From: Proteromonas lacertae
Lineage: Eukaryota
Direction of reading: 5' to 3'
DNA length: 64,000 nucleotides
Assembly: GCA_002245135.1 (NCBI GenBank)
Contig: NGBS01001161.1
Coordinates: forward strand, 186,001 to 250,000
Position 1 is the first letter of the stretch. Every line of letters starts with the position of its first letter. Both the position numbers and the translations under genes were made by a program. Below are positions 2 through 54,600 of the stretch, in pieces. The notes below the pieces were generated by a model. It did no database searches and was not told the origin of the DNA. It saw only the letters and a program-made list of their open reading frames with translations.

Positions 2-554
2 ATGAGTAATCCAGATGATAAACCATCCATATTTTCTATGCCTAAACCATTGAGATTGACAGAATCTGAACCAATTTTGAAGAAATTAGAGAGAAGAGAG
101 TTGAAGTTAATACAGGAAGATCATTATCCTCTTAAAGATTTAGATAATACACAGAATGAGACAGTTAGACTTCTACTAGAAGAAAATGCTGAATCAAATA
201 TCCCTTTTTGTTATTTTTAATGATTTATATTTTTTCTTAATAACATTCTACTAGCTAGATATAAAGAAAGGTACAATAAACCATATATTCCAACATTAGC
301 ATTGTCATCTAGATCATTAAATATGAAATTAGCGCAAGAGAAAAAGAAAGAATTTGATGTATATTTTAATTGTATATTTTTACATAGAAAAGTGTTACAA
401 TGAAGAGGTCAAAAGTATTACTATCATTTTATTATTATTTTTTTAGAGTAACTACATGGAGCCTATTGTTGGTAATAAGAAAAAGACGATAGAAGAGATA
501 GTTGAAGAGAGAAATCTTCAAAAAATGGAGCTAAGTACGCAACAGATGTGTTAA
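2..554 (+). CDS. Hypothetical protein, possibly 5'-partial; 3 introns, the first U12-type
   Basis: Frame is continuous after removing 198-251 (AT-AC) and two GTAT...TAG introns (~359-387, ~415-447); ends ...STQQMC-TAA at 552-554. No family recognised. Confidence 0.65.
198..251 (+). other. U12-type (minor) intron, AT-AC, 54 nt
   Basis: 5' ATATCCCTTTT; branch TTTTCTTAAT; 3' ...TTCTAC. Removal gives ENAES-I-ARYKERY and eliminates the stop at 218-220. Confidence 0.8.
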
Positions 555-667
555 AATAGTGTGATACAATATAATTATTTAATTATTTATGCGCATGTAT
601 TATTTACCCTAATCAACAATAATATTAATCTAATTGCATATAAATATTCTATCCTAATCTTTTATCA

Positions 668-931
668 CTAAAATATATCATCTTCAGGTTCACCCGTAGG
701 AGTAAGATATCTAAATCCGTCTTCGTCTACACTTTCTTCAGGCATTGGAGAGGATATGTTTTGATTCCTTGTGACATTTGTCTTATTTGTTTTAGTCTTT
801 TTTAGAGATTTTTTCTGGTGTTGCTCTATTATTTTGTCTACACCTTTGGCAAATTGAATTTGTAGAGACCTACAATGAATAAACAAATACTTTTAATACT
901 CAGCATCTAAAAGAGTGTTGATGTTAGACAT
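668..931 (-). CDS. Small hypothetical protein (~77 aa), 1 intron
   Basis: ATG at 931 (MSNINTLLDAE), GTAT...TAG intron ~870-899, joins ORF 668..886 (SLQIQFAKGV...EPEDDIF*). Confidence 0.55.
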
Positions 932-1189
932 AAATATGTATGTTACAGAGATAGAGAACCTATCTTAAAAATAAGAATAAAGAATAACAAAATGATTGGT
1001 CAAATTCATTTTAAATCAAGCCAAGCATTAAAACGAATAAATTGATTAAATCATCTATTCTTCTTTGAATCGAATAAAATACATTCATAAAACATTATTA
1101 ATTGATAATCTTAAATCAATACTCATAATAAATACTTATCAATAAACAATAAAATAAAAACAATAAATAAATAATAATATAATCTTATT

Positions 1190-2412
1190 CTACACAAATT
1201 CAGAAACATTCATTGGCATTTCATCAATTTCAGTTCCATAATACTGTTCAATATCAGCCAATACTTTCAAATCTTCATTAGTAGCAAAATTAATAGCAAC
1301 ACCTTTTCTACCAAATCTACCACTTCTACCTATTCTATGTATATATAATTCTCTACTACTTGGTAAATCATAATTAATAACTAAAGATACTTGTTGTACA
1401 TCTAAACCTCTCCCCCATACATCTGTTGCTATTAACACTCTACTTTCACCTCCTCTGAATTTTATCATTATTTCATCACGTTCATTTTGAGGCATTCCTC
1501 CATGCATTGTACAAACTGTGAAATTAGCTTCTCTCATCTTTTCTCCTAGCCATTCTACCTTTCTTTTGGTATTACAGAATATTACAGCTTGTGTTATCGT
1601 TAATGTATCATATAGATCACATAATGTATCAAATTTCCATTCTTCTTTTTCTACACTTACGAAATATTGTTTTATTCCATCCAATGTTAATTCATCACGT
1701 TTTACTAATACTTTCACTGGATTATTCATGAAATTATTGGTGATTTCTAATACTTCATTTGGTAATGTTGCTGATACTAATACTACTTGTGTATGTGGAG
1801 GTAAATATCGATATATATCATATATATGATCTTTAAATCCTTCATTTAACATCTCATCTGCTTCATCTAATACTAACATCTTTATATTCCTTGTTCGAAG
1901 GTTTCTTCTTTTAATCATATCAAATACACGACCAGGAGTACCTGATACTACATGTACACCACGATCTAAGGTACGAATATCATCAGCAAGACTTTTACCA
2001 CCAATACAAGAATGACACTGTACGTTCATATAATCACCTAAAGCTAATAGTACTTTTTGTGTTTGCTCAGCTAATTCACGTGTTGGAGAAAGAATTAATG
2101 CTTGAGTTTCTGACAATGAAATATCTATACTTTGAAGAATTCCTATACTGAACACTGCTGTTTTACCTGTACCAGATTGGGATTGTGCTATTACATCACG
2201 ACCTTTTATTATTGGTAAGATTGCTCTTTGTTGAATGGCTGATGGTTTTTCAAAACCGTATGAATAAATTCCTCTTAGTAAATCTTCTTTTAAACCCATA
2301 TCACTAAAACCTGAAACTACTTGAACATCTTTAGTTGTCTCGAATTCAAGTTTATTATCATCAGAACGTAATCCTAATGTATTAAAAAATAGCAAAATAT
2401 ACCTCCAGACAT
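1190..2412 (-). CDS. EIF4A3: DEAD-box RNA helicase eIF4A-III (exon junction complex core)
   Basis: Motifs [45 protein letters not shown], plus eIF4A3-specific [26 protein letters not shown] and [17 protein letters not shown] at 2412, one intron. Confidence 0.95.
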
Positions 2413-2518
2413 TTGAAATTGTTTATAGACAGTTAAAAATGATTTTAAATAAACAAGAAATATATTTCTTGATTATCAACAATAAAAAGAATCACTATAG
2501 CACAGCATTTTGAACCTG

Positions 2519-2534
2519 TCAAGCCAAGTTTATT
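2519..2534. promoter_or_regulatory. Putative promoter motif TCAAGCCAAGTTTATT in the EIF4A3/RPL17 divergent gap
   Basis: Identical 16-mer recurs at 5267-5282 in another divergent promoter; shorter TCAAGC/GCTTGA cores occur upstream of several other genes. Confidence 0.55.
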
Positions 2535-2617
2535 GTGAATGGAATTGCCATTCAAAATTATTAATGCATTTAATAATAAATTGTTACTCCGATTTCATTT
2601 GAGTATAATTAAGAGGA

Positions 2618-3497: not shown

Positions 3498-4379
3498 TTA
3501 AGATAATAAATCATTGTAGTTCATTATTCGCAATGCACCATCTTTCGTTCCATATATCAATCCATAACCTATTAAAGGATTAAATGTAGCCATATTCACA
3601 CCATCAGTTCCACTATTAATACAACTTTCAATTTTATTACTCTTTAAGTTCAAAAATCGAACTACTTGTGAGGATGGTTTTAAACTTTTTACTTGGAATG
3701 ATAATAAGGCAACTGACCTACTTGGTGACATTTTAACACATGTGATTTCACTTACATCTGATGGTAGAGAGAGTTAAAATAAAATAAAACATAGAAATTC
3801 TTATTAAAAAAGATATGTTTCAATTCATATTGATATATAATTTTTCCAAACCATCTGTTACTCAAATCAATTAAACAAACAGCAGCTTTATCTTTTTCGT
3901 TTCTATTTTCATGCATAAACGAAATATTTTGAGGAACATAATTTGTATTACTTCTAAAATAATATCCTTCATAACTATTTCTTGAATATGCTGTAGTATT
4001 ATAATTATTAGGATAAACATATGATTTAACTCCTGATGGCTGTGACATGTATCCACTACTGTTAATATTATTACTAGCAGCAGTAGAAGGATTTATTGCA
4101 GCTGTATTATTCAATGTAAAGCCATAAGCACTAATATTTCTACTGTTAAATCCACTATTTGTAATGCTGGATGGAGATGGAGGTCTATGCATCTTATTCT
4201 TCAATTTACTATTATTATCATTATTATATATATATATATATATAAATACACTGTAGCTAATAATAATTTACCACCTTCATCAAAATCAACACCTCCATTG
4301 TTGTACAATACAATTAAAAATGGTAATTTATTTGAAGTTATTTTTTCGATTTTATCAGTAGCTTGCTATATAACAAATA

Positions 4380-4412
<33 letters not shown>

Positions 4413-5241
4413 CTCTATAACTCAGTTCACATACATAGCCAGTAGCATATATATTAACATTATTCGTCCGATTATTATGTGGAGATGCAAATGCATAAAA
4501 CATTTTATTTCCATCTATACTAAATAACACAGCTCTCATTTGATCATTATTAAGATTATTTGTAGGATTTGATAAAAATGTATTAGGAACTGGATTTGAA
4601 GATGAGTTGTTATTTATTAATGGATAATAATTGTTTTTTCTTTCATAATTCCAAAGTAAGATCTTATCTTTTATACATACAGCTACGTGTGGTCTTATTG
4701 GGTGAAATGCTAAAGATATAATGTTTTCTCCAAATAAAAAGTTGGATATAATCACATCTCTTTTCCAATCCCAGATTATTAACAATCCTGCTAAACATCC
4801 TGATGCTATTAAATTTTCTTTAATTGGATGGAATGAGCATGCCCATGGTGTCCTTGCATGTTGCCTTAGAACCTATATAAAAGAATGAGAAAAGAATATA
4901 CTTTGTGAATTTGGTGTGTCTCTACAAACCCCACTTTTACAGTATGATCACCATGTGTAGATGCAAAATATCTTCTATAGAAAATAGTAAATGTAATCAA
5001 TGTAAAAAAATTATACCCGCTTCTTGAATAAGCCACGCATATCGTCGACCTTGTATCATTAGGGCGTAATACATATTTTTTATCAAACTATTATATCATT
5101 AACGTATATGCTATTATACAGAAGTAAAAGTAAGCTTTTCTGCTGTTTCCTTCAATTTTTGTGGCATATACTATAGATATTAGACCTTGGAATATATACA
5201 TTGCCTTTTTCTGCACCTAACAGCAGTTTATACACCGACAT
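3498..5241 (-). CDS. AMBRA1-like WD40 / DCAF protein, ~7 introns including one U12-type
   Basis: Spliced motifs FASTHGDHTVKV, HARTPWACSFHP, ASGCLAG, ITCVKMSP and C-terminal VNMATFNP..GYGLIYGTKDG are typical of AMBRA1 homologues. Confidence 0.8.
3764..3816 (-). other. U12-type (minor) intron, AT-AC, 53 nt
   Basis: Minus strand: 5' ATATCTTTTTT; branch TATTTTAAC; 3' TCTCTCTAC. Joins YQYELK-P-SDVSEITCVKMSP in frame. Confidence 0.85.
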
Positions 5242-5266
5242 TTTTAATTTTAAGAAGAAATCAAAC

Positions 5267-5282: not shown

Positions 5283-5301
5283 TTCATTTGAATTTCAGTT
5301 T

Positions 5302-8300
5302 ATGTCAAATGTATTCGCTCATTTATATATTCTAGTCATCTCTGATTGAAAGTATTGTATTATCAAGGGATATTCCAGTATAAACTTGAATTTTAAATCA
5401 CAATAGACCGAATTTAAACTAGCGAAAGCAATACATGATGATTTGGAAGCAAAAGATAATAGTAATTATTCCCAACAACTTCTAGAAGCAGTAGGACCAG
5501 ATATTTTCGACCAGTTTGTTAAGTATATATTTTATTGGACTATAATTATTTTAGATATTTATTTCAAAGACGTTATGGATGGTCTGAGTATTACGAGGGA
5601 AGTGAAGGAGATCCGTCCAATCCACGAATACCAAAATCACATATTTCTGACACATTGACTAAAGCGAATAAATCAGAATTTAACGACATTTTAGATTATT
5701 TAATATCGTATATTTCAATTCTTTTTATACCGTAAAATTTATTAGATTAATTGGACAATTACCACTTACACCAATAGTCATTAGCGCAATAGAATATACA
5801 GTTTTAAATTGTACGAACTGTCCTGTAGCACGCCAACAAGCTTATTTAACTATATACAATTGGGCAATAAAATCATTCGATGTTGATTTTACTGATAGTG
5901 GTTATGTATTTCCTTATGAAGAATTTAAATGTATTATACTATTATCAATAAGTGATGTATGGTCTCCAACTCGTAAAAACTGTATAAGAAAACTACACGA
6001 ATTAATTGACAATTTTGATGAAAATAAACTGAGAAATCTTTATATCAGTTTCATTGATCTTTATAATCAAAATAACAATGGCAATAACCAACAACCATTA
6101 CCTCTGCAGCAGCAACAACAACAACAACAACAATCTATATCATCAATAATAACTCCCAAATTAATTCGTTCTAATTCAACGTCATCTAACAACAATAACA
6201 ATGATTGGAGAATAAGAGAAGGTTGTATAATGGGGATGGGAATAATCATTAAATCATACAGAATATTGAAAATATCAACAAAAGATAATACATCTGAATA
6301 TAAAATATGTCTAGGAACTGATGTTTATAATGTTGTTCCAACCTATATTGCTGATAATGAAGATATTCTATTAACAGCTATACAAGATCAACAACAATCA
6401 GTTCGTGAATATGGAGTTAAGACTATAACATTATATCTGAATAGAACTTCTATAATATCATCTGATAATATTAGTATATGCCATTTAATGTTATTAAATA
6501 TTACAAATAATCAATTGTTACCCATTATTTATAAACAAAGGAAGAGTGTTAATTATATTGAAGAACCTTATAAAACAGAAGGATTAATACAATTATCTAT
6601 TGTATTGATTAAATATTTGAATCTTGAGTTTATTAATAAAAATTTTGAAGTTTTATGGAATGTATTTTGTATATTTTTATTTGATAATGCAAGTACAGTT
6701 AGACAAGCCGTTTCAGAATGTATAGTTATTATTGTTTTATATATATATATATTATATAGTGTTTGTTCAGTTAATGACTAAAGATATGGATGCTAATTTG
6801 TTTTTACATTTTTTCGATTGTCTTGTAAGATTTTGGGATATCAATAAAGTAATAGTTTTGAATAGTTTAAATTCACCAACTTCACCAAAAGATATAATGA
6901 AAGAAGAAGAAGAAGAAGATGATGATGATGATGAGAAAGTAGTTAATGAAATCAATTTGAATGAAAATCAAATTTGGCAAAAGAAAGAAGGGATTTTATT
7001 ATGTTATGAATTAATATTCAAATACTTAATAAAGTCTCATAGTAAAATATATTATAAAGAAATAAAGAAATTACAACAACAACAACAACATAAAGAAAAA
7101 GAAAAAGATAATAGTGGAATAAATACTTCAATATCTTTTTTTAAAAGAGAATATATATATATATCAATATTATTTCTCTTAATTCATATTTTAAATAGGT
7201 AATATATCAGGTATAGAAAGTTGTCCAGGAAGTAGTAAAATAAAGCGAAAAGTATTAGCTTCAACAACATCACCGATATCAACAACAACCAGTGTAACAT
7301 CACCTGAAAATAATGTGAATAGTGTAACAAACACACCAGAAACAGCAAATAGAGTATTATTTACATCTCCAAGTATTGAACGAATTGTACATGAAAGAAA
7401 GAATAGTTTATTTAGTGAAGAAATGAGATCTCCTTTAAATCCAACCAATAGTTCAAGTAATAGTAACTTTAATAAATCATTATTTATGCTGATATATTCA
7501 AAATATGATGATTATGTATTATTTACTGATAATCTTAGTATATATATATATATATATTATTCTATAGGAACTATTTATCATCAAGTTGAAGATTGTATTT
7601 CCTCAAACAGTAGGTTTGAGTTAAAAAGAATGGGTGAGCAAGATTTACCATTATTAATAACAGCATTATATCATATCTGTCCAAAAATAATATTTGAATA
7701 TTTTAACAATATTATATCAACTCCAATACCTCCAACATCTGTTAAAAGTCAAACACCATTAGTTACAAATAATAAATATATATGTTTATTGAAATCGATA
7801 GATACAATATTAGAATATAACGCTAGTAATAAAAATATAGATTATGAAACTCATTATCAATCAGATTATTATTATAATATTCATATAAAAAGTAAAAATA
7901 TGAATAGAAGACATGAGAATGGTAATAATAATAATAATAATGATGATGAAGAAGAAAGTGATGAAGATGATGGTGATGATGATGATATTTATATATCACC
8001 TGTATATATTTATATATTTATGTATTTAATAGTATAATTTATTCAAGAAATATATTCCTCAGTTTCTTATTAATTTTGATAATTTGCTATGTAATGCTCC
8101 TTCTGATACTATTAGTTTAATGACATCTCACATTATTATATTATTATATTATTATTATTACAATAATCAACAACAACAACAACAACAATCTGTAGAAATG
8201 GATGATGATGATAATGTAGTTGTGATAATCGATGAGAAATTAAAAGAAAAACAAATCAATTTCATTGTAAAGAAGTTAGTAAAAATTGAAACTATAAGAA

Positions 8301-9262
8301 AAAGAACTTTAAAAGATCCAAAATCTGTATATTTATATATATATTTATATATTATTTTATATATTATTTAGACTGAATTATTAAAAAGAAGAATCAATCT
8401 TCTATCTAAACTTTGTCATGATACTTTCAAGCCAAATAATTTATATATTCTCCTCTCAATTCTACCTATCAATTTAGTATTGAGTTTACTTCCCATATTT
8501 ACTCAATGGATTGTAGATATAGAAGAAACAGTTGATGAAATTGAACTATGTAAATATATTTATAATTATCTATACCTTATATCCCTCTATTCACCTTTAC
8601 ATCATATCGAATGTAATGAAGATGGAATGAAACACTCAAACCATCCTCAAGCTTTTCCTAATCCACCAACAATATCTATTACTCCCATTCCAGATATTGA
8701 TGTTAATAATAATAATAATAATTTATCACCAAGTAGTGATTTTTCATATTATTATAATGTAAATAAGAAAAACCATTTGATTCCATCAACTGAAGAAATA
8801 TCATTGTTATTATCACCATCAGCTACTTTTCAAACCAACTTCAAACCTTTTTTATTATATTTAGAACCACAGGAGTTAGATAGGAATACTGATTTTATTA
8901 GATTACTAAGAACCAATCAAAATAGAGATATTATAATGAAAGAAATAGAAAATGGAAATATAGAGAATTATATTGTAGAAATAGTAAATACATTAAATGG
9001 AATAATTGAAAATAAGAGTAACATAGATACAAGAGTATTAAAATACATATTGTCAGTAATGAAATTAATAACAATCATTGCTTTTGATTATAGATATTTA
9101 ATAAAATTCATTAAGAGTCTATTGAACAGAGTAAAAGCTAGTTTAATTAAACTGAAAGCAAATAAACAAAAATCAACTAAATCAACTAAACTTGGAGGTG
9201 AAGTTGAAACGGCTTTATATTTAGTATCTAATGATATTACTCATACAATAACTAACAGTATA

Positions 9263-9296
<34 letters not shown>

Positions 9297-9911
9297 ATTA
9301 TGTTGAAATAGATGACATAATTAGTGAAAGTGATACAGAAATTAACAATCAGAATAACAGCAGTATTATCATTAAAAATGATAAGAATTATAACAAAACT
9401 AAAGATACATCAAGTACACTCAACAAAAGTGGAATTATTAAAGCATCTGATACAATGAGTAATGATAAAAAAGATAGTGATTCTGATTATGAATCAGATG
9501 ATGATAAAAATAAAAAGAAGAAGAAAAATACAGATGATAATGATGATGATGATGATGATGATGAAACGAATGATTTTGACGAAGATTCTGATTCTGATAA
9601 TTGGGATGATTGGTCTGATGAAGAAGTAAGTGATACATTTTTGAATGATACTAAAGAATTCTTTAATCAGCTGTTAAAAGTTTTTCCAGTTGTAAACGAA
9701 GAGACTGTGAATAAAAATATAAATAGTAAAAGGATTGTATATGAGAGAGAGGATATTAGTTTGAAGGAATTATGGTGTAAAAGCATAGTGAAATATGTGC
9801 CTGTTGAATTCATTGTATTTTATTATATTTATTTATTTATTGTATGAATAGTTTGAAAGCTTGGATGTAGAAGAGAAATGCGTTTATGATGACTTAGAAT
9901 GTTTAATATAA
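5302..9911 (+). CDS. Large HEAT/ARM-repeat-like protein with low-complexity N/Q/D tracts, ~11 introns
   Basis: Exons splice into one frame; HEAT-like motifs WRIREG, D.ASTVRQA, WQKKEG.LL; ends DDLECLI-TAA at 9909-9911. Confidence 0.65.
7131..7194 (+). other. U12-type (minor) intron, AT-AA, 64 nt
   Basis: 5' ATATCTTTTTTT (phase 0); branch TTTCTCTTAAT; 3' ...TTTTAA. The nearby AGs ending at 7198, 7210 and 7216 all give frameshifts. Confidence 0.72.
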
Positions 9912-14623: not shown

Positions 14624-14695
14624 ATATAAACTATAAACTCTCATTTGATCCTTTTTTATTGGTGATACAAACTCTCATAAACAATAGATTAAAAA

Positions 14696-15511: not shown

Positions 15512-17535
15512 CTAGTACATTTCATCATCATCATCATCTTCTTCTTCTTCTTCTTCATCTTCATTTTCACTTTCTTCTTCACTACTTTCACTTGAACTTG
15601 TTTTTTTCAATGGGAATTTTCTAGGTGGAGCAACTCTTAATACAAACCTTTCATCAATACTATTTCTTCTTGGAGTAGAAACAGGAGTTTTACTTCGTAT
15701 ATTATTTATAACAGCAGACTTTGTATTCTTCTTTATTTCCTTCATCGATAATATCAAATTATTCAATATAATAGAAGATGAAGTATCCATTAATGATGAT
15801 TTAGATTTTAAACTCATTTCAGCATTGGATAGATAATTTGGATTATTGATTATGCTATTAATTTGTTGGTTTTGTATATTAAATTTCTATTCAATATATA
15901 AATATATAAGAAAATATACTTTTTCTGAATAATGTAAAGCATCATCAATCATTGCTAAACAAGTAACATAACCAAATGGAACTTTATCTTCATTCATAAA
16001 TGAATATTTATTAATATAATCAATAGAATATTTTGCATTATACAACTTCAAGTATATTAAAATCAATTGACAATAAGATGAATTCTCAGCTTCAAATGTA
16101 TAAATATCTTTATCTTCAACTATTCTCATATTCTTATTAAAATCATTATTTCTTTTATTACTATATGGAGATTGATCAATAAATATATTACTTTCACTTT
16201 GGCTTCTTAATCTGGTTGTTGCTGCAGATGTTATTGTTGAATGAGAACGATTTGAATGAGGTGAAATACGTTTTCTAATTGGAGAATTTTGATCAGATAA
16301 TGAAGTAGAAGTATTAATATTAGTTGGTGTTGATGGTGATGTTAATAATGTAGTTGAACTACTAATATGGTTTGTTACATGAATTGAAAACTTTATTTCA
16401 TTATCTTGTTCTTTATAAAATGATAAATTTGAATGATAATGTAATGATAAAACAACTTTTGATTTACTTAATACTTTTATTTTATGTTTATTAATTTGTA
16501 TTTCAACTTCACTTTTTTCATCAACACCTTTGATTCCTTTTATATGTTTTATTTTATAGTTAAAATCACATTTTTTGCTCATTTCTGTTTTAACATATTC
16601 CTCTAAATGTTTTGTTGTTATTGTTGAACATATTTCACAACATTTTTTGTCTTTATATCTAACTTTCATTTCGATTTTACATCCAGCATCATTTATAGAT
16701 AAATAATACAAAGGACCACTTCCTACTAATTCAATGATATTATCACCGTAAAAAAAAGAAATAGACGTTAAAGAAGTTTATTAATTATTTATTGTTAAAA
16801 AGATATAAATTTATGTCTATACCATTGAATATCACATCTTTCACATACATCACTGATTTTACCATTAATCTTTAGACTTCCATGACAACGTAACTATTAT
16901 AATTATATTATTATTATTGTAGTTATACTACATCACCAACTCTTGGTTGGCCTGCAATATAACAATCATTCAATTCAACTCTTTCAGTATCTAATATTTT
17001 ACTATTCACATTATTTAAGGTTGAATTCAGCGATATTAACTGCTCTTTCAAATCGTTTAAATAATGACTTGTAATGTCTATGAAGTTCTATTAACTATAT
17101 ACTGATATTACACATACAATGAGATAATCTTCTTTCTTTTCACTTGCTTCTTCTTCTTCTGAAAATGCCATTAGTGGTGTAGTAGGATCAGAAATAGTGA
17201 ATTCTTTGGAAGTGGGCTATTACAATATTTTAAATTATAATACTCTATTAATTACATGAATAGATATTTCACGTCCATATGGTTGTAATTTATGTTTTAA
17301 ATTCTCTATATCTTCAATGCTTTCAATTTGACATCTATGTAGTAAAAAAGCTTTATATACTGGATCATTAACTTATTATCATAACGTACATCTGCTTCTC
17401 CCCATTTAACTCCATTAAACTTATTTTTAACTATCTTTGAGAGTAAATTTAACGGATTTGCATTTGGTAAAGGAACAACTGAACATTGACAAGCATCTAA
17501 TAATTATATTGCATTATAGATTGTGTACATGACAT
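15512..17535 (-). CDS. Hypothetical protein with AIR9/A9-like Ig-type repeat and acidic C-terminus, ~7 introns
   Basis: IAGQPRVGDVL...QWYR...G...GSGPLYYLSINDAGCKI resembles the A9 repeat consensus; exons join in frame. Confidence 0.6.
16748..16806 (-). other. U12-type (minor) intron, AT-AC, 59 nt
   Basis: Minus strand: 5' ATATCTTTTT; branch TTCTTTAAC; 3' ...TTTTAC. Joins QWYRHKF-GDNIIELVG in phase 0 and removes stops. Confidence 0.8.
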
Positions 17536-32004: not shown

Positions 32005-32163
32005 AAAACATAAATAATAGTGATAATTAAAACATAGTCATAAAATAATTAATAAAAAACCAAATGTATTATTATTATTATTATTATTAATTCTTTATAT
32101 ATTATTATATTATTATGATTGTGTTTTGTTTTGAGGTGTATTTTGAGTGAATTGAAAAAGATT

Positions 32164-34458
32164 CTAATATTTTTTCCATTCAGATGGCTTTGTATATACT
32201 CTTAGGCATGAATTTGATGAAAATAAATATCTCAACAATCCGTCTGTCACTTTGTAACAACCACTGTAATTCAAATGACATAAAGTAGTTCCACCCAGCT
32301 ATATGCCATTAAAATGATATATAAATATATACATGCATCAAACCTTTGTCAGTGATATTATAACATCCATATATACATATATCTAAAATTGATTTACAAT
32401 AAGCATCTTCAATTCTAGATAAAGATTTATCAGAGATGTTTGAGCAATTTGAAAGTGACAGATATTTTAGCTTAAATTTTCCATTGCACATACAATCTAT
32501 ACCTTTATCTGTTATTGATGTTAAATTAATGTTCAGTGAATCAAGTACAGACATGGTTTCTGATATTGATTTTAACACTTCATCATCACATCTATTTTAA
32601 ACATATAATAAATGAAGATATAAAAAAGAAAAATATATACAATTCTAAACCTGATAAGTCCAATTCCACAACATTTTTTGAATATAATATACATTTACAT
32701 ACACTATTACTTGATAAAAATCTATTTCCTCTTAGCTAAATACATACATAAATAGAAAAATGAAATATACAATTAATGAAGTAAGATATTCACCATTTAT
32801 TCTAGCCCATTTCTCCATCAACTCTTAAAATATCCAATTAAAAACACTATTCGTTATTTGTAGTAGGAATTAATCAAAAAAGATATATTTAACAAATCAA
32901 TACCACCATATAAACTGAACAAACATAAATCCTCACTTTTTGGATAAGGTGTTTCATCCATTATTGATTCTAATAGTTTAAGATATGTATCTACATATTG
33001 AGAAGAAATGTCAGCAATCATTTCTTCACTATTTTCATTATCAAAATAATTATCAACATCTTTATACGGCTGAGACCATCTACAGATATAAGGCTCCCAT
33101 CTAATACGATTTATTATTCTAATTATACTTTTGATATTTCAGAATATCTTCTGATTCTTCTAAATACAGTTCTTTACGTTTAATAAGAGATAGAATACCA
33201 ATTCTAATTATTGGTTCTCTTATTGTATCATAACATTTAACTGTTATTTATATAAATAATAAAATAATAATAAAATACGAGGTAATAGACATGATAAACA
33301 TTCATAAAACAGTTTCAGATCATTTATCACATCCAACAACTGTAATTGATATTGCAAATCATAATTCACAAATTTAGAAGAAGTTAGAAGCGGAACGAAC
33401 AATGAGAGTAAATGTGTAACAATCATATCAAGTTGTAAATAGTCTGCACACTAATCAAACAAATAATAATAATAATGATTTATACAAAAATCAAATCCCA
33501 TAAAAATGGTGAATCAATCTCTTCATCTGTCAAATACTTAGATTGAGATAAATTTAATTTCTGCTGAACATCTTTCATATAATTTACTAATATATTCATA
33601 ACTTTAGCTGGTATTGTTGGGAAATATATTGTATTTGGATATAATGGTTCTTCAATTGGCTTTGATTCTTCAATTGGTGATTCAACAGGTGATGATGATG
33701 ATGATGATTGAGGTAATTCATTTGGAATATCTTCATTTTCAACTGACGGGGGTGGAGGAATACTTTCATTCTTTTCACCATCACTATTATTACTATCTTC
33801 AACATCTTCCTTTTCATTATTACTGTCATTATTTACATCTTTATGTGTATCTTTATCATTTGTAATTGTTTCATCTTCTGTTTTCTTATTTAATACAGGT
33901 TCTGGTAGAATGATATTAGCTTCACTTGTATCAATTGGAGGTAATGGTAATACTTCTACTTTTTCATTTGATTTATCTTTTGGAGTGGTTTGTATTTTGT
34001 TCTTCTGTTTAATTGTTTTACCACTATAATTTTCTGATTTTGCTTTTGCTATTGGTTTCGTTGCTATTATTGTTTTTGAGATAACTCTTTTTGAACTTGT
34101 ATTTACTAACTTCTTATCAGATACTTTGGGTTTCTATATCATTACAACATTAACAAGTATTAATACCGTTTTTAGTTGACCTTCATTATATATTGATGAA
34201 TTAGGAAGTATTTTTGATTTAGCTAGTTTTGTTTTTGACTATACTATTAAATTAAGTAATTTATACAACTGAGTATGTTGTTTTACTTTTAGTTGTTTTA
34301 TTTGATTTTTTAATAGCTATTTATAAGAATATTCAAACAATATTATACGATTATATCTCAATTGTTTGTGTAATGGAGTTGTAGGTAGTATATCTACTGT
34401 AGATTGTGACAGCTTTCTAATGAAATACAAATTACTTAAATAAATACTCTAAACTCAT
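32164..34458 (-). CDS. Protein with C-terminal cysteine-containing (FBXL/AMN1-type) LRRs, ~10 introns including one U12-type
   Basis: LSLSNCSNISDKSL, IYGCYNITDKGL, LNYSGCYKVTDGLL; N-terminal low-complexity K/P/E region; start uncertain. Confidence 0.7.
32825..32886 (-). other. U12-type (minor) intron, AT-AA (or AT-AG 3 nt further), 62 nt
   Basis: Minus strand: 5' ATATCTTTTTT; branch GTTTTTAAT; 3' ...TTTTAA. Joins GGIDLLN-ELMEKWAR. Confidence 0.72.
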
Positions 34459-38476: not shown

Positions 38477-40091
38477 TTAAATCGGACTAACAGGAACAAC
38501 TGTACCTTCTTCTTTTATACCATTTGGAGATTCTTTATCCGTCTTATCATCATTGATCACTTTATCACTACTATTTTTCTCATCTTTCTTAGTATCTGAA
38601 CCTCTATTTGGTCTTTGAGCATTACTCAATTCATCTTCCCATACTTGAGCAACTCTTTTACCTCTCTCTAATTTAACAAATAACAAGATAAACAATCCAA
38701 TTGGAAAAGTTCCACAGAAGATACAAGCAGCAGTTCTTCCATCTGTAGCATCAGATATTGGTCCATAAACAGTAGAAATAATAGAAGCTAAATTAACAAA
38801 CATTTCCCATAAACTAAATATTTCACCAGATAGATCTTTGGGTGATAACAATGTCAACATTGATCTAGAACATGATTGGGATGGTCCCATAGCTACTCCA
38901 ACAATAGGGCAAATACAAATAAAGAAAGTTTTTACATTCCCAATTTAATGCTTCACATAATTCTATAGCAGAAACAGCTAATATTAAACCAACTGTCCAT
39001 ATCACTAAAGTTATAATAATAACAATCTTTGGACCTAAATAATTCTCAATATAACCAAACAATACACAACCTACAGCTGCAGTTATTTGAATAATGACAA
39101 ACATTGTCGCAATTTGTCCTGATGATAAGTCAATTGTATCACTTGCATAAATGGACATAAAACTGACAATGCCTTGAACGCCAATCATATAGATTAAGAA
39201 AGCTAAAAAGAATAATCTCAAATCTTGTTTCCTCATTACAACTTTCAATGTATTCCATAACTGCTTAAATGTATCTTTTAAATCTTCCCATACCTTTGTA
39301 ATTAATTTTGTATTTTTCAATTCAACGGAATCATAGATGGTTATTGTGTTTTTGGATGGAACTTTCCATAAACCATATATAACTGGAATACCAGATATTA
39401 AACAGAATAAACCACAGAGTAACATTGATAGAGATACACTATCAGCATAACCAGCATCACCTTCACTTTTCATTACCCCAAATGTTAATATTCCCAAGCC
39501 GATTGTTCCACCAACATATCCAATTCCCCAACCTATACCACTTACAAAGCCTGAATATTTTCTATCTGTTACACAATCTGGTAGGAACATAGCACATACT
39601 CCTTCATTGGTATTATAAGCTATACGACCTAAAATTAACAACACTAAGGCCAACACTGTATGATTATGTTCTGAATACGGTCGTACGAAGAATAACAAAG
39701 CTGAAAATATTGAATACCCCACTATATTTGCTCCTACCCATGCTAATTTATGACCTTTTAAATCAATTATTGAACCAATAACAGGTGTAACTAGTATTGA
39801 AAATATTGTAGGTACAATATTTGCAACAGACCATAGAGAGGCAGCTACACCTGATTTTGCAACATAATCGACAAAATATGGTGCATAAATAGCAGATACA
39901 ATAACTGTGATATAAATTGAATTGGAAAAATCATTAAAAGACCATCCCAAAGTTTCTCGCCACTTCACTTTGTGATACCATTTATCTTTAGATGTATTCT
40001 CTGGGGATTCTATTTCTATTGACATAGGTGCGACTTTTGTCACGCTTTTATTTTCTTTCAGTTCTACAGTGCTAGGTTGGCTTTCGGACAT
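38477..40091 (-). CDS. MFS transporter, UMF1/Atg22-like, intronless; +1 frameshift at the T-run 38929-38933
   Basis: W.FNDFSNSIY.T...Y..YF, P.IGSIID.KG.K, VSGIGWGIGYVGG, GP.QS.SRS; ~12 TM segments once one base is removed. Confidence 0.85.
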
Positions 40092-44400: not shown

Positions 44401-46424
44401 CCAAAGGTGATGTTAGTCAGACTACTATTACAATAAAGAATAAATCAAAGAAAGAAATGGATTTTGAATTTAATGTTCCAGTTCCTGAAATTTCACAAAT
44501 TATATTTGTTCCAGCTATAGGTACAATTCAACCTGGTAATTCACAGAATATATTAATAAACTTCAAACCAACAGAAGATGGTTTACATCCACCACCACCT
44601 CCTCCACCTGAACCAGAACCAGTAGAACCAGAAGAAGAAGAAGAGGATAGCAAAAAAGGCAAAAAGGGTAAAAAACCAGCTGCTAAAAAGCCACCAGCAA
44701 AGAAACCATCACCCAGATCATCTAAAAAGAAGAATGGTAAGAAAGGATCACCAGAACCAATAGAAGAACCACCAGAGCCAGTAGAACCAGAAAAACCAGT
44801 AGAACCAGAAACACCAAAACCACCAGAAAGACCTAAAATAGATGATAAAGTAGGATATATTCAATATTCAGAAGATATTGATGAAAATGAACCATGGAGT
44901 AGACATGCTTATTGGAGAGTCCCATTATTTATGAAAGAACATGATAGTGATAATATAAAAGAATATGAACCATTAGGTGTGAAAGTATATACAACAACAG
45001 TACAAAAGACATTAACATGCGATTTAGAAGTAATTGATTTTGGTAAGAAAGCTGCTGGTTGTGAAAGTACAAAGATAATTACCTTGGTTAATACAGATGA
45101 AGAACATGATTTACAATTAGAAATAGTTCCATTAAATACAATGGGTAGTTTTAGTGTATTAAATCCAGTAGAATCAATACCAGCAGATGGTAAAATATAT
45201 ATAACAGTATGTTTTAAACCATTACAACATTTAATTTATAAAGAAACTTTAACAATAAAATCTCTACGAGGAAATGTAAATATTAAACTAACAGGTGAAG
45301 GAATAAGTCCTTCTTTAGAAATCATACCAAACGATCCAATTATTAATATGGGAGTAACACAACATGGTAATACATCTACTAAGACAATTACATTAAAGAA
45401 TGTATCACTTTTCCCATTAACATTTACAGTAAAACCATTAACTTCACAAGATACAAATTATACAACATTACCTGTATATGGTTGTATTCCAATGGAAGGT
45501 ATTATTTTACCAGAACAAAGTGATACAATTACATTTTTCTTTACTGCTGATCATTCAAAGAATATTCCTTATAAAATGAAATATTTAATTGATGTTCCAA
45601 ATCAAACAGAACCTCATGTTGTTGAATTGATAGGTAGATGTTATGACACACCATTATATATTTATTCACCTGATTCCGAAGCTATTATTCCACATGGTAA
45701 AGAAGGTATTGAATATTTATTAGATATTCCATCATGGATTCCGATGGTAAAAGATGAAGAGAATAGTAATCCACTGTTACCAAATACAACAGAAGAAGAA
45801 GAAGAACCACCACAAGTTAATTTAAATTCGAGAGATACATCAATATATTTACATGCTGTTAGAATTGTATTTCCTAAAGATAAACCTGATGCAAAAATAC
45901 CAATTTATTTAGGTGGAGTTCAACCACATATTCCAATATCAAAAGATGCTGGTTTAGCAGCTGATGGAGTTGTTGATCCAAAGAGTGCAGCTGCTGCAGC
46001 TGCAGGAGGTAAAGGTGCAAAAGGAGCAAAAGCTAAACCACCACCTAAAGCAAAACCAGCTGCATCAAAAGCAGCAAAAGGTAAATCAAAGAAAGGAGGA
46101 GCAACTACAGCAGCAAGTGAAGAACCTATTGAATTTAATATTATTCCTGTTTGCACAACAGGTGGTGTTGGTACTTATGATATAAATGTTCCTGCACAAT
46201 GTCCATTTAACTTAACTAATCCTAGAGGTAATTTAACAAGTACACAGGAAGTAGTAATAGAAGTAACACAAAATCATGCAATCTTCAAAAATGATGATAG
46301 TGAAAAAGATATTGGCTTGTCGATTGGTAAGTGGATTACTACAGAATTAGTTTGTGAAATGAAATCTGGTAATGATAGTTTTTCAGTTCCTATAATATTA
46401 AAAGGATTTTTTAATACCATTTAA
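41432..46424 (+). CDS. CFAP74: Cilia- and flagella-associated protein 74, 1 intron
   Basis: N-terminal coiled coil with G.NPY.VF; QVVCGREFKGQAF..KP..VEFKDFEVG...LTNVSY...PGRMSAG; ASH/Ig repeats, GFGTILPFE. Confidence 0.85.
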
Positions 46425-46551: not shown

Positions 46552-47261
46552 ATGGTTAAATTAGGACAATTAAGAAATTGTATTTATCATCTCTATATCT
46601 TATCTATTGATCTATGTAGTTTTTGTTTTTCTATACTTCATTCTTTGCTAATTATCTAATTACAATATATATTCCTATTTTAAATCCATTTTTAATTTAA
46701 ATAATAGATCGTCGTACTTACAAGACACCACGTCGTCCATACGAAAAAGAAAGATTAGATCAAGAACTTAGACTTTGTGGTGAATATGGTTTAAGATGTA
46801 AAAGAGAAATCTGGAGAGTTCAACTTGTATTAGCTAAAATCAGAAAGGTAGCAAGAGAACTTTTAACTCTTGAAGAAAATGATACCAGAAGATTGTTTGA
46901 AGGTTCTACTTTAATCAGAAGATTGACACGTCTCGGTTTATTAGCTGATGATGAAAGAAAGTTGGATTATGTTTTGCAATTATCAACCCAAAGATTGTTA
47001 GATAGAAGATTACAAACTAAAGTATTCAGATCTGGTTTAGCTAAATCCATCCATCATGCTCGTGTTTTAATCAGACAAAGACACATCGCTGTAGGAAAGA
47101 ATATGGTTGATATTCCATCATTTATGGTGAAATTAGATTCAGAAAAACACATTAACTTCCAACCAAAATCACCATTCGGTTCATCTGGTAAACATGGTCG
47201 TGTATATGTACACAACATGAAAACAAAAGCCAACCAAAAGAAAGAAGGAGGTGATGAATAA
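46552..47261 (+). CDS. RPS9: 40S ribosomal protein S9 (uS4); single 128-nt intron 46580-46707
   Basis: [39 protein letters not shown]...[18 protein letters not shown]. Confidence 0.96.
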
Positions 47262-47461: not shown

Positions 47462-48322
47462 ATGTCTAAGAATAAAGTTAGTAAAAATAGACCTGATGCT
47501 ATTCCTCTAGAAGGTGAATTGGAGCTATATAAGCCATATCCTCTTTTTTTATGTTCTATAACAGTTATTTTAACTATATATAGTGGCTATTGTTGTAGAC
47601 AGTGGTTTAAATATTATGCAATGATAAACAGCACTGATAATGTTTTGAAGTTGTATAAGAATAGAATAGACAAAACACCATATAGTATTTATTTTTATGT
47701 TTATATTTATATAGTTGCAATTCGTTTAGAGTTGCTAAAAAAAGTAACACAAATAGATGATAGACATTTTGAGGTATTTTTTAATAAAATATAATTGTAT
47801 AAATAGCTATCGTATGGATGGAAAGTAAATCTATTCCAAAGTCCTACTAAAGCAGAAAATGATCAATGGATTGCTGCAATTGTAGATTTTTCAAGAAGAT
47901 ATGGTGAATATTTGCGAGATTATATATCATTATCTATGAATGAAATAGAGCCAATGATTCCAGGAAATCTAAATCACAAACATGCATATATTTCAATAGG
48001 AATAGCATCTGCGTTTAGTAATTCATCCTGTAGGCCATATCAAAGTAATAATAACTTACCTTCTACCTCTTCTGGAGGTGGAGCTGGTGGTGTAATTCCT
48101 TTATTAAATTGTATAGAAGATCCAACAGCAGAAACTCCCACAATTAGTAAAAGTAGTAATTCAAGTAGATTACATACACCAAATGTAATAAGTAGTGCAG
48201 AAAGACTCAAAACACCAATAGGAGCTAAAGATAGGTTGATTTGTAGTTGTAATGATTCAATTCATTCTGATTCTTCTAGACAACCTGTACGATCTTCTAC
48301 ACATTATAAGGAAGATATATAA
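47462..48322 (+). CDS. N-terminal PH-domain protein, 3 introns (first U12-type)
   Basis: After splicing: LEGELELYKPGYCCRQWFKYYAMI...LKLYK...IRLE...FE...FQSPTKAENDQWIAAI. Confidence 0.75.
47536..47583 (+). other. U12-type (minor) intron, AT-AG, 48 nt, frame-preserving
   Basis: 5' ATATCCTCTTT; branch TATTTTAAC; 3' TATATATAG. Removal restores the PH beta1-beta2 motif. Confidence 0.75.
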
Positions 48323-48505
48323 AGTCATGTCGTTAGTTTTTATCTCATTATTTATTAATTTTCTCAAATATGTATTTAAATGTAGTTTTAAGTAATATAT
48401 TTGTGTTTGTTAGATGAAGAGTGTTGTAAAAAAGAAAAAGAATAAAAAAGAATTAGAAACGGATATATATCTTTTTGGAGGTATTTTGTTTTTATCTTTA
48501 TCTCG

Positions 48506-50388
48506 ATGAATAATGCCGATAAAAAAGATAATCGCAATTCAAATGCTAACAAAGGTACAGAAGAAGTATTGGCAAAGATTATTGATGGTTTAGCTACTTC
48601 GATTACCTCTCTTCCCAATGATCTTGATTCAATTTCTAGATATTATTACTTCTTGCTGAATAGAACCGAAGGAACAAAATTTACCCCGGAAGAGATCAAG
48701 AAAGTGATATCAAGTAAAAAGAGAGAAGATTTGATGAAAGGAGCAATAGGTGAAGAAAAACCACATGATGATGTGATTTCATCTATAGTGAACAGTTTAA
48801 CATTGAATGACTCATTTATGAGCTTCAATGAAAGTATAGAGATTAATGACTTTCCAGAAAAGAGAATCTTTATTAGAGAATGTTACAAAGAGAAATACAC
48901 TGAGATAATGAATGATATAAAGACTTCAAAGAATGAAAATCCTCATTTTGTAGTGATTGGTCAAACAGGTAATGGTAATACTTCATTTGCTTATTTTATG
49001 TTAATGAATATAAAGAATGAGAAAGAAGATGTATTAAAAGGAAGAGAGATTTATTTTATAAAATCTGAAGATTCAATGGTTTATAAATATGTCAAGAAAG
49101 GAGAATGTTATTTATTAGAACATTTACATGATTGTGATATTAGAAAAGTGAAAAAATCAATTATTATTTGTGATAGTTATGGTAATGCTTCTAGTGATAA
49201 TATCATAATCTCCATTAGTTCTCCAAAGAAAGAGTTTTACAGATATTATATGAATAGTAATTCAAAAACAATATATTTTGATATATTTAGTCCAAATGAA
49301 GTTAGAATATGGTTTAAAATTTGTTTAAACTATGACAATGGGGTTGTTGATGAAAATGTGATGATTGATTATGGTTATAATCCTAGACACATTCACAGTC
49401 ATTATATTAATAGAGATATATTCAAAAGAGATTATTGGGATGAATATAGAAAGTCATTAAAGGGATTAATTGGTATTAAAAAGTTTAAAGAATTTATTAA
49501 TGAATATCTGCTCAGTGAAAGATATGAAGAGAATGAATTTATGAATTTAGTATTTCATTACAATTTAAAAGATGGAAAACCTCAAAAGTATTTGAAATTC
49601 AATTCAAAAAGAATTTCTTATGTGTTTATGAATAATATATCAAGAGAGTTTTTTGAAGAAAAAGCTGTTGATGAAAATTACTATATATATCGAATATATA
49701 AAGAAATGGATGATGAAGAAATAAAATCATTTATGTATAAAAGATTAGTAACATATGTAGTTGCATCCCATCCAGAAATTGTTAAAGATATAATATTATA
49801 CTATGAATCTAATTGTCATGATATGAAACCTGGCTTTCGTCATTATTATACTACATATGTAAAAGAATTTCAAGCAAAATCTTATTCTTACTATTATTTA
49901 AATGAACAGTATGATCGATATGATTTTGTAGTAAATAATTGTATGTTTAAAGTGTTTTATGATGATTCTTCACTTCAAATCAATGATGATGAACCAAAAT
50001 AAGATTTTTAATGTATTGTTATTAATTATATTCTTAATAGAGTAATTTCTATGGAAAAGACGAAAAGATATTAGAATCAAAAGAAGTTATAATCCAAAGA
50101 GAAGGATATGTTCGAAATGGTTTAGTATTAAATGATGAATATTTAGATAAATATTTTACTTCAAGAAAAGTAAGGAAATTAATGATCAGTGAAAACAATG
50201 AATCATTACCACCTGTTACTCATATAAATACTCATTCTAGATTTGCTCCAGGAAGTGAATTTGAAGATAATGAAGATGAAAGAGAAGATGAAGAAGATGA
50301 AGAAGGAGAAGAAAAAGATGATGAAGAAAAAGATGATGAAGAAAAAGATGATGAAGAAAAAGGCGACGACGACGACGACGACGACGAC

Positions 50389-50421
<33 letters not shown>

Positions 50422-51546
50422 AAAGAAGAAAAAGGAGATAAAAACAAAAAGAAGATCAGTAAAGAAAAACCAATCATTAGTTTAAAACCTAAAGAATTTA
50501 ACATAAAAATAGACAAAAAACTAATAGTTGATATTCCATCAAAAGAAGAAAACATACCAAATGATATTGATTTACAGTTAAATGAGATTGCTATCGATGA
50601 AAAAAATGATATATTATATATTAATAAACATGAATTGGTTAATAGAGATTGCTACAAAACTATATTGAACTTAATAAATGATAATAACAAAGGAAAGAGA
50701 AATTTTTTGATATTTGGGGTAGAAGGAATTGGTAAAACAGTTTTAGGTTATTATTTATGTCATTATTTTAGTCATTACTTATTTTCTGACAATGAAAATT
50801 ACAATGTGTTATTTATATCCAACAAAAACAAGTTTTATTATGCTCCAAAAGAAACTGGTGTATTTATGAGAATTGATAAATATGAAAATCCAAAAAATGG
50901 AAAAGTAGTGATAATTGCTGATGATATAGTGATAACTAGTAATGATTATATTGATGCTGATACTATGATTTTGTTGAGCAGTCCTTACTTGAAAAAGTAT
51001 AAAGATTTCCAATCCAAAAGAACTCCATTGTCAATGTATATTCCACCATTTACCGAAAAAGAAGCAAAAAAGTATTATAAAGGTGATTATGATATTGATG
51101 CTGACCAATATGGATATATTCCTGGTTTATTCATGCATGATTATGATGAAGATGAAGATTATTTTGAAGGATTAATTAATGAATATAAAAAACAATTAAG
51201 AGGACATAATTTCTTTGAGTATATCAAAGATGTTGATGAAAATCCAGAGAATGGAAAAATTAATATGAACAATATTTACTGTTATAAGATTAAAAAAGGT
51301 GATTTAACCAAAATAACTAGATATGAAGAGATATCAGAAGGTATTGGCAAAACGGTGTTTAATCATGTAATGGGTGGTGGTTTTGGACATCCAAATTTTA
51401 CTACAACTAATAAGACTAGAAGAAGAAGAAGAATAGAATTTGAAATTGATGGAGATCCTTATCTTAAAGATAATAAAAGAAAGGCAGAAGAAGAAGAAGA
51501 TGATGATGATAATGAATCTTCATCTAAAAGAAGAAGAGTAGAATAA
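48506..51546 (+). CDS. Crinkler/RHS-type protein with two P-loop NTPase modules; needs a +1 shift at 49996-50002 and intron 50013-50040 to be one gene
   Basis: FIRECY...VVIGQTGNGNTS...SSP...Y (module 1) and NRDCY...IFGVEGIGKT...LSSP...YKDF...MYIPPF (module 2); acidic linker; C-terminal KRRR. Confidence 0.6.
50311..50419 (+). repeat. Coding tandem repeat (GAAAAAGATGATGAA)x3 followed by (GAC)n(GAT)n poly-Asp
   Basis: Directly visible; encodes EKDDE x3 and a long Asp run. Confidence 0.85.
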
Positions 51547-51661
51547 AGAAAAATCAATCTTATATAGATATTATTATTAATAATGTATATCCTGATGTTT
51601 GTTTTAATCTATAATTCATATTTGAAATAATTAAAACAAGCCTAAATTATTGAGCTTGACA

Positions 51662-51672
51662 TTTTCGCGCCA
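51662..51672 (+). promoter_or_regulatory. E2F-type element TTTTCGCGCCA upstream of POLE
   Basis: Exact match to the TTTSSCGC consensus, about 22 nt before the ATG at 51694; CpG-rich in a very AT-rich context. Confidence 0.6.
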
Positions 51673-51693
51673 TTTTCATAATTATCATTTTAA

Positions 51694-54600
51694 ATGGCTG
51701 AGAATCGTCAAAATAGAGAAAAATCGGTTTCACAAAGGCGTGAAGAGATGGAAGCGTTTGATGAAAGTATAAATATTAATAATTATAACTAGAATTTGGG
51801 TATGTGAAGTTTCGTGGTGAACCAACAATTGCATGGCTTTTGAACATGGTACCAACTTCAATTTTAGATGAATATAATGAAGAACAGGCTTGTCTTGAAA
51901 TGTACTTCTTAGAAAAGGATACAAATAATTCTTTTAAAGGCACATATCTATATCGGCCTTATTTTTACATATATGTTCATGAAAAGTACATAATGGAAAC
52001 CACAAGATATCTTGAAAAGACTTATTCAGGTCATATTGAAATTACAGTAGCGCAGAAGGTGGATTTAGACCAGCCAAATCATTTGAGTGGTAAATTAGCA
52101 AAATACCTTCGTTTATCTTTTACATGTGTGAGATATCTTCTAGAAGCAAGAAAAGAAATTATGAGTTATGTAAAACACAATCAATCCTTACATGGAAAGC
52201 ATTTAATATATACAATTCCAGAATCATCAATAACAACATTTACTGAAGCAATCTTTGATATAAGAGAATTTGATGTTCCATATTATGTAAGAGTATGCAT
52301 TGACAATGATATAAGAACAGGAGCTTGGTACAAAGTAATACAAACAAAATCAGATAATGATGGATTTATTAATGTAGAATGGCAAAAAGACATGGTAGAA
52401 AAAGCAAAACCTAAAATATTAGCATATGATATAGAATGTACAAAAGAACCATTAAAATTTCCCAATTCAGACCATGATTCTATTTATATGATTTCTTATA
52501 TGATTGATGGTATGGGATACTTAATTGTTGACAGGAAAACTGTATCTCAAGACATTGAAGATTTTGAATATACACCAAAGAATGAGTTTCCTGGGAAGTT
52601 TATGGTTTTTAATGAAAAGGATGAGGAAGATTTGATAAAGAGATTTTTCACTCATATTCAAGAAGAAAAGCCAAATATTGTAGTAACTTTTAATGGTGAT
52701 AAATTCGATATGATATTTCTTGAAGAACGAGCAAAAAAGTATAATTTAAATATGACCAATGAAATTGGATTCTATTTAGAAGGTGATCATTATAGAGGTA
52801 AAAATGCAGTTCATATGGATGCATTCTGTTGGGTAGAAAGAGATAGTTATTTACCGCAAGGAGCACGTGGCTTGAAAGCTGTAACACGTCATAAATTAGG
52901 ATATGATCCTGTAGAAATAAGTCCAGAAAATATGTTAGTATATGCTATAACTAATCCACAATATATGGCTACATATTCAGTATCAGATGCTGTAGCAACT
53001 TATTATTTATATATGCAATATGTCCATTTATTTGTATTTAGTTTATGCACAATCATTCCAATGAATGCTGAAGATGTATTAAGAAAAGGAAGTGGTACAT
53101 TATGTGAAATGTTATTACAGGTTGAAGCTTATCGAGGTAATATTATATGTCCAAATAAACAAATATCTGATCCTTATACATTTCATAAAGGACATTGGAT
53201 TGAAACAGACACTTACATTGGTGGACATGTTGAATGTTTAGAATCTGGTGTATTTAGATCAGATTTACCAGTGAAATTTCGATTAGATCCTACAGCATTT
53301 CAATACTTGATTGATACAATTGACAGTTCTTTGACATTTCATATTGAAGTGGAAGAAGGATTACAAAGATGTGATGTATTGAATTACGAAGAAATCAAAT
53401 CACAAATTATAGAGAAATTGGAAATGTTGAGAGATTCTCCAATCTGTAATGATAAACCAATTTTATACCATTTAGATGTAGCAGCTATGTATCCTAATAT
53501 AATACTTACAAATCGTTTACAACCATCTGCTATTGTTAATCCACAAATATGTTCTTCCTGTTTGTTTAACAGACCTGAGAATGAATGTAAAAGAAAAATG
53601 AAATGGGAATGGAGAGGTGAAATGTATCCTTTGAAATTAGGTGAATTTAAACAAATCAAAAGACAATTGGAAGAAGATTCTTCAACAACTAATAAGAAAT
53701 TTCTAGAAATGACTGAGACTGAACAAGTTGCTGCTTTGAAGAAAAGAACAAAAGAATATTGCAGAAGAGTTTATGGTAAATTAAAAGTAATTGAAACCGA
53801 AGTAAGAGATGCAACAATTTGTCAAAGAGAAAATTCATTCTATGTAAATACTGTTAGATCATTTCGTGATAGAAGATATGAGTATATATTTTATTTTAAT
53901 TATTTATAGTTATAAGAAATTAACAAAGAAATGGAATGGAGTATTAAAAGATATAATGAATAAAGGTGGAGATATATCTTTTTTTTTAATTATTATGTTA
54001 ATATAATAATTAGTTTTCTTTAATTGATAGTTAAGAAGAAGAAATAGAAAATGCTAAAACAAAAGTTGTATTATTTGACTCATTACAATTAGCTCACAAG
54101 TGTATTTTAAATTCATTCTATGGTTATGTAATGAGAAAAGGAAGTAGATGGATGTCTATGGAAATGGCTGGAGTTGTGACACATACTGGCTCAAATCTGA
54201 TTACTGAAGCAAGAGAATTAGTTGAACGAATTGGAAGACCATTAGAATTAGATACAGATGGTATTTGGTGTATTTTACCACAATCATTTCCTGATGTTTA
54301 TACATTCAAATTGAAAGGTGATAAGAAAGTGAAAATCAATTATCCATCATGTATGCTAAATGCTGAAACTCATACGAAATATACAAACCATCAGTATCAA
54401 CAATTGGTTAATGAAAAAGAGAGAAAATATGCAATGAGAAGTGAGTGTTCAATATTCTTTGAATTAGATGGACCATATAGAGCAATGGTATTACCAGCAT
54501 CATTAGAAGAAGGGAAATTATTGAAGAAGAGATATGCAGTTTTCAATTTTGATGGATCTCTACAAGAATTGAAGGGATTTGAATTAAAAAGAAGAGGAGA

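Follow-up and report, generated by a model that had tools for sequence, protein, structure and literature searches.

Seven AT-starting introns of probable U12 type in a 64-kb window from a likely relative of Blastocystis

The closest described counterpart of the introns treated here is known from Blastocystis ST1, for which 346 U12-type introns, 'typically' AT-AC, have been reported together with all four minor small nuclear RNAs (snRNAs) and seven proteins (PMC5608401). In the intron table of that paper, 336 introns start with ATATCC and three with ATATCT, which amounts to 339 of 36,254 rows (0.94%), all of them in the ST1 sheet. Another study counted 253 U12-type introns in Blastocystis, 77% AT-AC and 49% in phase 0, and suggested a recent gain (PMC10639083). 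Here we describe seven AT-starting segments in a stretch of 64,000 nucleotides (nt) of contig NGBS01001161.1 (positions 186,001 to 250,000; this whole stretch is called the window in the following). With a probability of roughly 85%, and judged from the sequence, we consider them to be U12-type introns, whose excision by a minor spliceosome retained in the host is predicted.

When 90 of the ST1 ATATCC introns were inspected by eye (rows 1-60 and 307-336 of the supplement to PMC5608401), 55 ended in AC, 30 in AG, three in AT and two in AA. According to the same supplement these introns are mostly 37-44 nt long, versus 30 nt for the major introns, and 25 out of 25 ST1 GTATCCTT introns are 29-33 nt long, i.e. 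they belong to the major length class. The frequent AG ends are not highlighted in the intron section of that paper; AT-AG is disfavoured according to a review (PMC3584512). The window has in common with ST1 the essentially exclusive AT starts, the AC, AG and AA ends and a length class above that of the major introns. Exclusive AT starts, ends of several kinds and a length class apart can already be found in published data for this likely relative, with the AG, AA and AT ends not spelled out in the text. An initial reading of the window from its letters alone (the sequence-only reading) had measured novelty against animals and plants, and thereby overstated it. Compared to ST1, the introns of the window are longer, carry T at position +6 far more often (five of seven versus three of 339), end more frequently in AA and are about five times as dense. 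These differences, with a density of about 5%, and the flagellated, basal-stramenopile-like host are what is new here. In a literature search that did not extend to the genome paper on Proteromonas (see PMC12129017), to the logos in Figure 1 of PMC5608401 or to the bioRxiv supplements, each of which may matter for novelty, no report on minor introns in a flagellated relative of Blastocystis was found, and passages of PMC11347168 and PMC5953543 contain nothing further on this system.

The U12-type introns of animals and plants resemble those of the window in the RTATCY 5' signal and in a branch motif 11-13 nt from the end, the reported optimum (PMC3584512). They are unlike them in making up 0.5% or less of the introns, in being mostly GT-AG, with about 4% non-canonical termini, and in disfavouring AT-AG. 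Among the non-canonical termini of canonical U12-type introns AT-AA is the commonest (PMC10639083; PMC3584512).

Signals, gene model and local density

All seven segments were confirmed at the coordinates and on the strands first proposed (Table 1). They lie in seven different genes across 54 kb and begin with ATATC(C/T) followed by a run of pyrimidines, so that the 5' signal of U12-type introns is present in all of them in a drifted form. The base at +5 is C in seven out of seven but in only one of the 127 introns with GT starts. A TTAA(C/T) motif, counted after TTAA, is located 10-13 nt from the 3' end in six segments and 20 nt from it in one, in agreement with the distances of 9-12 and 19 nt given originally; TTAAY at 9-13 nt is found in six of the seven AT segments versus 11 of the 127 GT introns. 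The segments also form a length class of their own, with 48-64 nt versus a median of 32 nt for the 127 GT-AG calls, nine of which reach 48 nt or more (Mann-Whitney p 4e-5). The major introns are highly uniform: about 94% have GTA at +1 to +3, the donor is GTATA or GTATT in 103 of 127 and the end is TAG in 114 of 127, often with (TA)n runs. U12-type introns usually lack a distinct polypyrimidine tract; in this genome all introns are T-rich, and the one at 16748-16806 has a T run 3' of its branch. No credible GT-starting U12-type intron was seen among the 127, just as the sequence-only reading had held; the only one that begins with GTATC lacks the pyrimidine run.

Table 1. Predicted U12-like introns of the window
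Positions	Strand	Termini	Last three bases	Length (nt)	Phase	Margin (nats)	Gene and remarks
198..251	+	AT-AC	TAC	54	1	11.0	gene cut by window edge
3764..3816	-	AT-AC	TAC	53	1	18.2	last intron of AMBRA1-like WD40 gene (about 3498-5241)
7131..7194	+	AT-AA	TAA	64	0	9.7	HEAT-repeat gene (about 5302-9911)
16748..16806	-	AT-AC	TAC	59	0	15.8	branch TTCTTTAAC 20 nt before end
32825..32886	-	AT-AA	TAA	62	0	8.0	LRR-containing gene (about 32113-34458)
47536..47583	+	AT-AG	TAG	48	2	4.4	presumed PH-like gene; weakest candidate
53974..54034	+	AT-AA	TAA	61	0	13.8	DNA polymerase epsilon catalytic subunit (POLE) gene (about 51694-58828)

A gene model was trained on the long open reading frames (ORFs) of the window; the strand of each of 33 regions was set manually, and GT/GC-AG introns were learned iteratively. 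A U12-like intron was permitted at any RTATCYYY with an A-N end 35-100 nt further on and a TTAAY 8-22 nt before that end. Unprompted, this model picked the seven segments at identical coordinates, together with 127 GT-AG introns and an eighth U12-like candidate; after strand correction seven and 131 were called. The eighth pick (61317-61414, within a 71-aa ORF) was antisense to a gene model on the + strand and was gone once the strand had been corrected. Since the branch motif was demanded by the model, the presence of TTAAY in the picks is not an independent finding. The 5' motif was controlled by decoys: 29 motifs with permuted first five bases were picked at 11 of 441 sites, each of them 0-1 times and one being a real intron shifted by one base, compared with seven of the 23 sense ATATCYYY sites. 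The full motif occurs 12 times on both strands together, versus a mean of 1.9 and a maximum of 8 in 200 block shuffles. With an added penalty of 4 nats all seven introns were kept, with 8 nats six and with 12 nats three; 47536-47583 was lost at a stricter prior. If no AT intron is allowed, the model must resort to poor GT donors, which bears out the warning that annotation restricted to GT-AG would mis-model these genes.

A relaxed search yielded six extra calls, all weak and none convincing, two of them in frame within open POLE exons. The same relaxed search alone brought up a ATATCTTTTT site (48467-48507, + strand) just 5' of a predicted start codon, possibly a U12-like intron of a first exon or 5' untranslated region.

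The seven introns correspond to 4.9-5.7% of the introns in this window (7 of 122-142; 95% interval 2-11%), a single 64-kb window that had been flagged for the trait. We give the density as a range, since not every GT-AG call is sound: among the 127, 11 are in frame without a stop, and at least two appear to be false. The local value agrees with the approximately 6% proposed earlier; an expansion of minor introns throughout the genome, which had been proposed with it, is no more than suggested by this one flagged window. At close to even odds, the introns are of U12 type and yet the 5% is a local excess that came to notice through the flagging of this window, in a genome that holds 1-2% as does Blastocystis ST1. 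With a true fraction of 2%, seven or more would be met with a probability of 0.012-0.025, and such tails are expected when hundreds of windows are scanned; moreover, the interval reaches down to 2%. On the other hand, the probability falls to 2e-4 to 4e-4 at a true fraction of 0.94%, and the seven are spread over different genes rather than clustered in one.

Junctions and 3' ends

Evidence on an individual intron comes from the AMBRA1-like gene, labelled so after its best PDB match (AMBRA1, E 5e-12). The ORF of a relative, P0243, reads through the intron at 3764-3816 in frame, with 31 of 36 residues identical before and 73 of 87 after it. Between these conserved flanks lies a divergent segment of 60 nt, versus 53 nt in the window, and conservation ends at both predicted junctions. 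The translated segment of P0243 begins H-I-F-F as in the window, where the His codon requires A at +1 (GT would give Arg), and it ends in a Gln codon, which requires C at -1 (AG would give Glu). An F-N pair (TTY AAY) is kept at branch distance. In the cluster of six members to which this relative belongs, the 5' side is shown by three and the 3' side by three; in other members the frame shifts inside this segment, just what one would expect if it is an intron.

For POLE, the linker that surrounds the intron was obtained from 113 of 120 homologues, 92 with 31 residues and 21 with 34 residues. In 13 of the 21 homologues with the longer linker, G-D is found 15-14 residues before (Y/F)DSLQ, a spacing that no form other than the 61-nt AT-AA one preserves. 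The GT-AG alternative lacks G-D, and on the profile of the 34-residue class it falls 6.4 bits short.

How firm the 3' ends are differs from intron to intron. At 7131 AA is the only workable near in-frame end, as the AG at 68 nt yields a stop, and at 53974 AA is forced given the ATATC start, the next in-frame ends being AA as well. For the same start, AC is the only in-frame end at 16748, and AG the only workable near end at 47536. Tandem in-frame ends exist at 198 (AC at 54 nt or AG at 57, the latter ending at 254), at 3764 (AC at 53 or AG at 59) and at 32825 (AA at 62 or AG at 65). At 3764 P0243 decides for AC over AG, S-D right after the AC end being conserved. The relaxed 3' dinucleotides claimed before are thus firm, within what the letters can tell, for the two AA cases at 7131 and 53974 and likely for the AG case at 47536, while the in-frame AG alternatives at 198 and 32825 take some force from the claim. 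That each segment restores a reading frame or a conserved motif held for six; at 198..251, for instance, excision removes an in-frame stop (ORF 2-220).

Several points weigh against the assignment of the seven segments to the U12 class. Neither a perfect ATATCCTT nor CCTTAAC is present in any of them, as both the 5' signal and the branch are drifted and the CC is mostly missing from the branch. Four of seven are in phase 0, opposite to the usual U12 bias. For minor snRNAs there were no Rfam matches in the 64 kb, neither at the gathering threshold nor at E up to 1, and the minor machinery was not seen in the window. The sequence of another member of the P0243 cluster, P0241, implies A at +6. 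For POLE, a profile of all 113 homologues, mostly with 31-residue linkers, scores the GT-AG and AT-AA forms alike (173.6 vs 173.3 bits), and the 34-residue profile does not separate the AT-AA form from a 64-nt AT-AG one that begins two bases further upstream, though in the latter the D and the ATATC register are lost. The assembly contains at least one indel error: near 54790, within a conserved part of POLE, the reading frame is broken. A relative (P0143) reads through there, so that a one-base assembly error is likely, and the 22-nt model intron at 54780-54801 (+) that bridges the break is false. Finally, 47536-47583 is in frame without a stop. Its T content is 52%; among coding 48-mers, 0.2% attain 54%. 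The search for a relative was negative here; a HMMER search with the PH-like exon against 1.8 billion representatives gave two matches to repeat proteins, judged spurious, and Pfam on the exon pieces returned nothing usable for the junctions. We take the gene to be PH-like by resemblance; it has no Pfam match. By its letters, this segment too is probably of U12 type, with less assurance than the set as a whole.

From these points one might argue that several of the seven are not introns as drawn, with cryptic GT-AG introns nearby, 47536-47583 retained, assembly errors, AG used at the tandem acceptors and few true AA ends. GT-AG alternatives can indeed be found for six, and retention would serve for the seventh. 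However, these alternatives have rare donors (GTTAT, GTAAC, GTGGA, GTTAA) or lengths of 70-104 nt and come out 8-18 nats lower, P0243 provides independent evidence of A at +1 and of C at -1, and AA remains forced in two cases once the ATATC start is accepted. For the set as a whole we therefore regard this explanation as improbable. It is unlikely but has an appreciable chance for 47536 alone, and for the exact end at 198, as well as for that at 32825, it has a substantial though minority chance, all three tandem positions having an in-frame AG to offer.

A predicted route of splicing

The least probable explanation, and a rather remote one, is that of real introns spliced by a major spliceosome that would accept its GTAT donor with A at +1 (U2-type AT-AN), or by a hybrid machinery: the major donor is a single base away from ATATC at +1 and at +5, and the branch lacks its canonical CC, but C at +5, the length class, the positioned TTAAY and the non-AG ends co-occur in the same segments, and Blastocystis has the same intron class along with a full minor spliceosome.

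U12-type splicing, as we prefer to read the seven segments, might work as follows. A minor spliceosome would have been retained from an ancestor common to Blastocystis and the host. Its U11/U12 particle would read ATATCY and the pyrimidine run jointly with the TTAAY branch, as in the known pathway, and the 3' end would be taken at an A-N some 10-13 nt beyond the branch, so that AC, AA and AG could all serve. In a genome of 27% GC, C would tend to drift to T both at +6 and in the branch, and G-U pairs would tolerate this. U12-type introns with a GT start are probably missing, which is also the case in Blastocystis; they may have converted, the major donor GTAT(A/T) being so close. Changed snRNAs are possible but would not be required. 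The sequence-only reading had considered co-evolved U11, U12 and U6atac to be implied; this does not follow, because U11 is unpaired with intron bases +1 to +3 (PMC3584512) and with U at +6 a G-U wobble to a G that has not changed would be possible.

A minor system of even higher density is known from Physarum polycephalum, with 20,899 U12-type introns among 175,198 (about 12%), a 5' signal (G/A)TATC(C/T)TTT that allows T at +6, and non-canonical members of which 29% are AT-AG and 27% AT-AA and which are missed when annotation admits only GY-AG (bioRxiv 10.1101/2020.10.12.336362). High density, T at +6 and frequent AT-AG and AT-AA termini are common to Physarum and the window. In contrast to the window, Physarum belongs to the Amoebozoa, its U12-type introns mostly start with GT and are biased away from phase 0, and its branch is TTTGA with a compensating change in the U12 snRNA. 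A transformed system of this type is not seen in the window, where the branch is TTAAY and no member starts with GT.

Host, origin and significance

The window is gene-dense, eukaryotic and has a GC content of 26.9%; its genes include eIF4A3, G-beta, POLE, CFAP74 (41432-46424, +) and DPCD (14631-15374, -). From the latter two a flagellated host is likely, and since flagellar genes are lost in the genus Blastocystis, the host would not belong to that genus. The closest relatives of eIF4A3 are 92-98% identical, named taxa 80% or less and Blastocystis 75-77%. A quick tree of this one gene (20 rows) places the window in a group with stramenopiles (support 97), outside the clade of oomycetes and ochrophytes (96). 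Against a kinship with Blastocystis it has to be said that a clade of the two was neither recovered nor rejected in this tree (p-AU 0.20), and a FastTree of eIF4A3 gave no supported sister. By such sequence comparisons, a basal stramenopile with kinship to Blastocystis is the likely host. The GC values listed in Table 1 of PMC12129017, 27.0% for Proteromonas and 21-23% for tortoise Blastocystis, offer the lead that the window would suit a flagellate which is rich in AT and akin to Blastocystis. The Blastocystis polyadenylation motif occurs in 13 copies, near the stop codon in four of 32 genes, and is not diagnostic.

As to the other genes, the one that holds the intron at 16748..16806 may have Ig-like features of the SCAB/AIR9 kind (score 0.77), which is a lead only. 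Two ribosomal protein genes, presumably RPL17 and RPS9 by their resemblance, have unusually long predicted first introns (2629-2743, +, 115 nt, and 46580-46707, +, 128 nt, respectively), neither with an Rfam match. Side by side lie two ORFs of about 500 aa with hardly any introns (48446-50002 and 50041-51546, both +), each with a P-loop-like motif; we assume a resemblance to the nucleoside triphosphatase of CRN/RHS-type families. An intron-poor transporter gene of ATG22/MFS type (38477-40091, -) is possibly of bacterial origin.

Gains of minor introns are considered exceedingly rare; the single large exception is Physarum, and Blastocystis is suspected to be another, for which the authors of a survey called for more relatives (PMC10639083). 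Scanning metagenomes with POLE brought up 80 loci, of which eight without anchors were dropped and 72 kept; this set was selected for open frames. The best locus is 72% identical, and the scan found no close relative and no match to an RTATCCTT-type intron. Deep conservation of position is otherwise typical of U12-type introns. The linker is uninterrupted in 70 of the 72 loci, and in the other two it is interrupted at a different site. The four phase-0 introns and the empty POLE position would fit a recent gain, weakly so because the locus sample favours intron-poor genes. For an introner-like origin there is no sign in this set, as the seven cores show no mutual similarity above shuffles (best p 0.015 among 21 pairs). 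Taken to its full extent, the proposal would be a genome-wide, all-AT minor complement near 5%, the densest known after Physarum, gained de novo in the Blastocystis/opalinatan line, in which branch distance would determine the 3' end nearly alone and AA would be a routine terminus. We put this forward tentatively, the odds being somewhat against it.

In the window itself, annotation restricted to GT-AG breaks about one gene in five (seven of about 33), POLE included. If the full proposal is true, hundreds of AT-AA and AT-AG introns would be at hand to test how the minor spliceosome chooses its 3' ends. And if the density holds, a flagellated relative several times above Blastocystis would be just the comparison that is needed, in which shared and unshared intron positions test gain versus loss.

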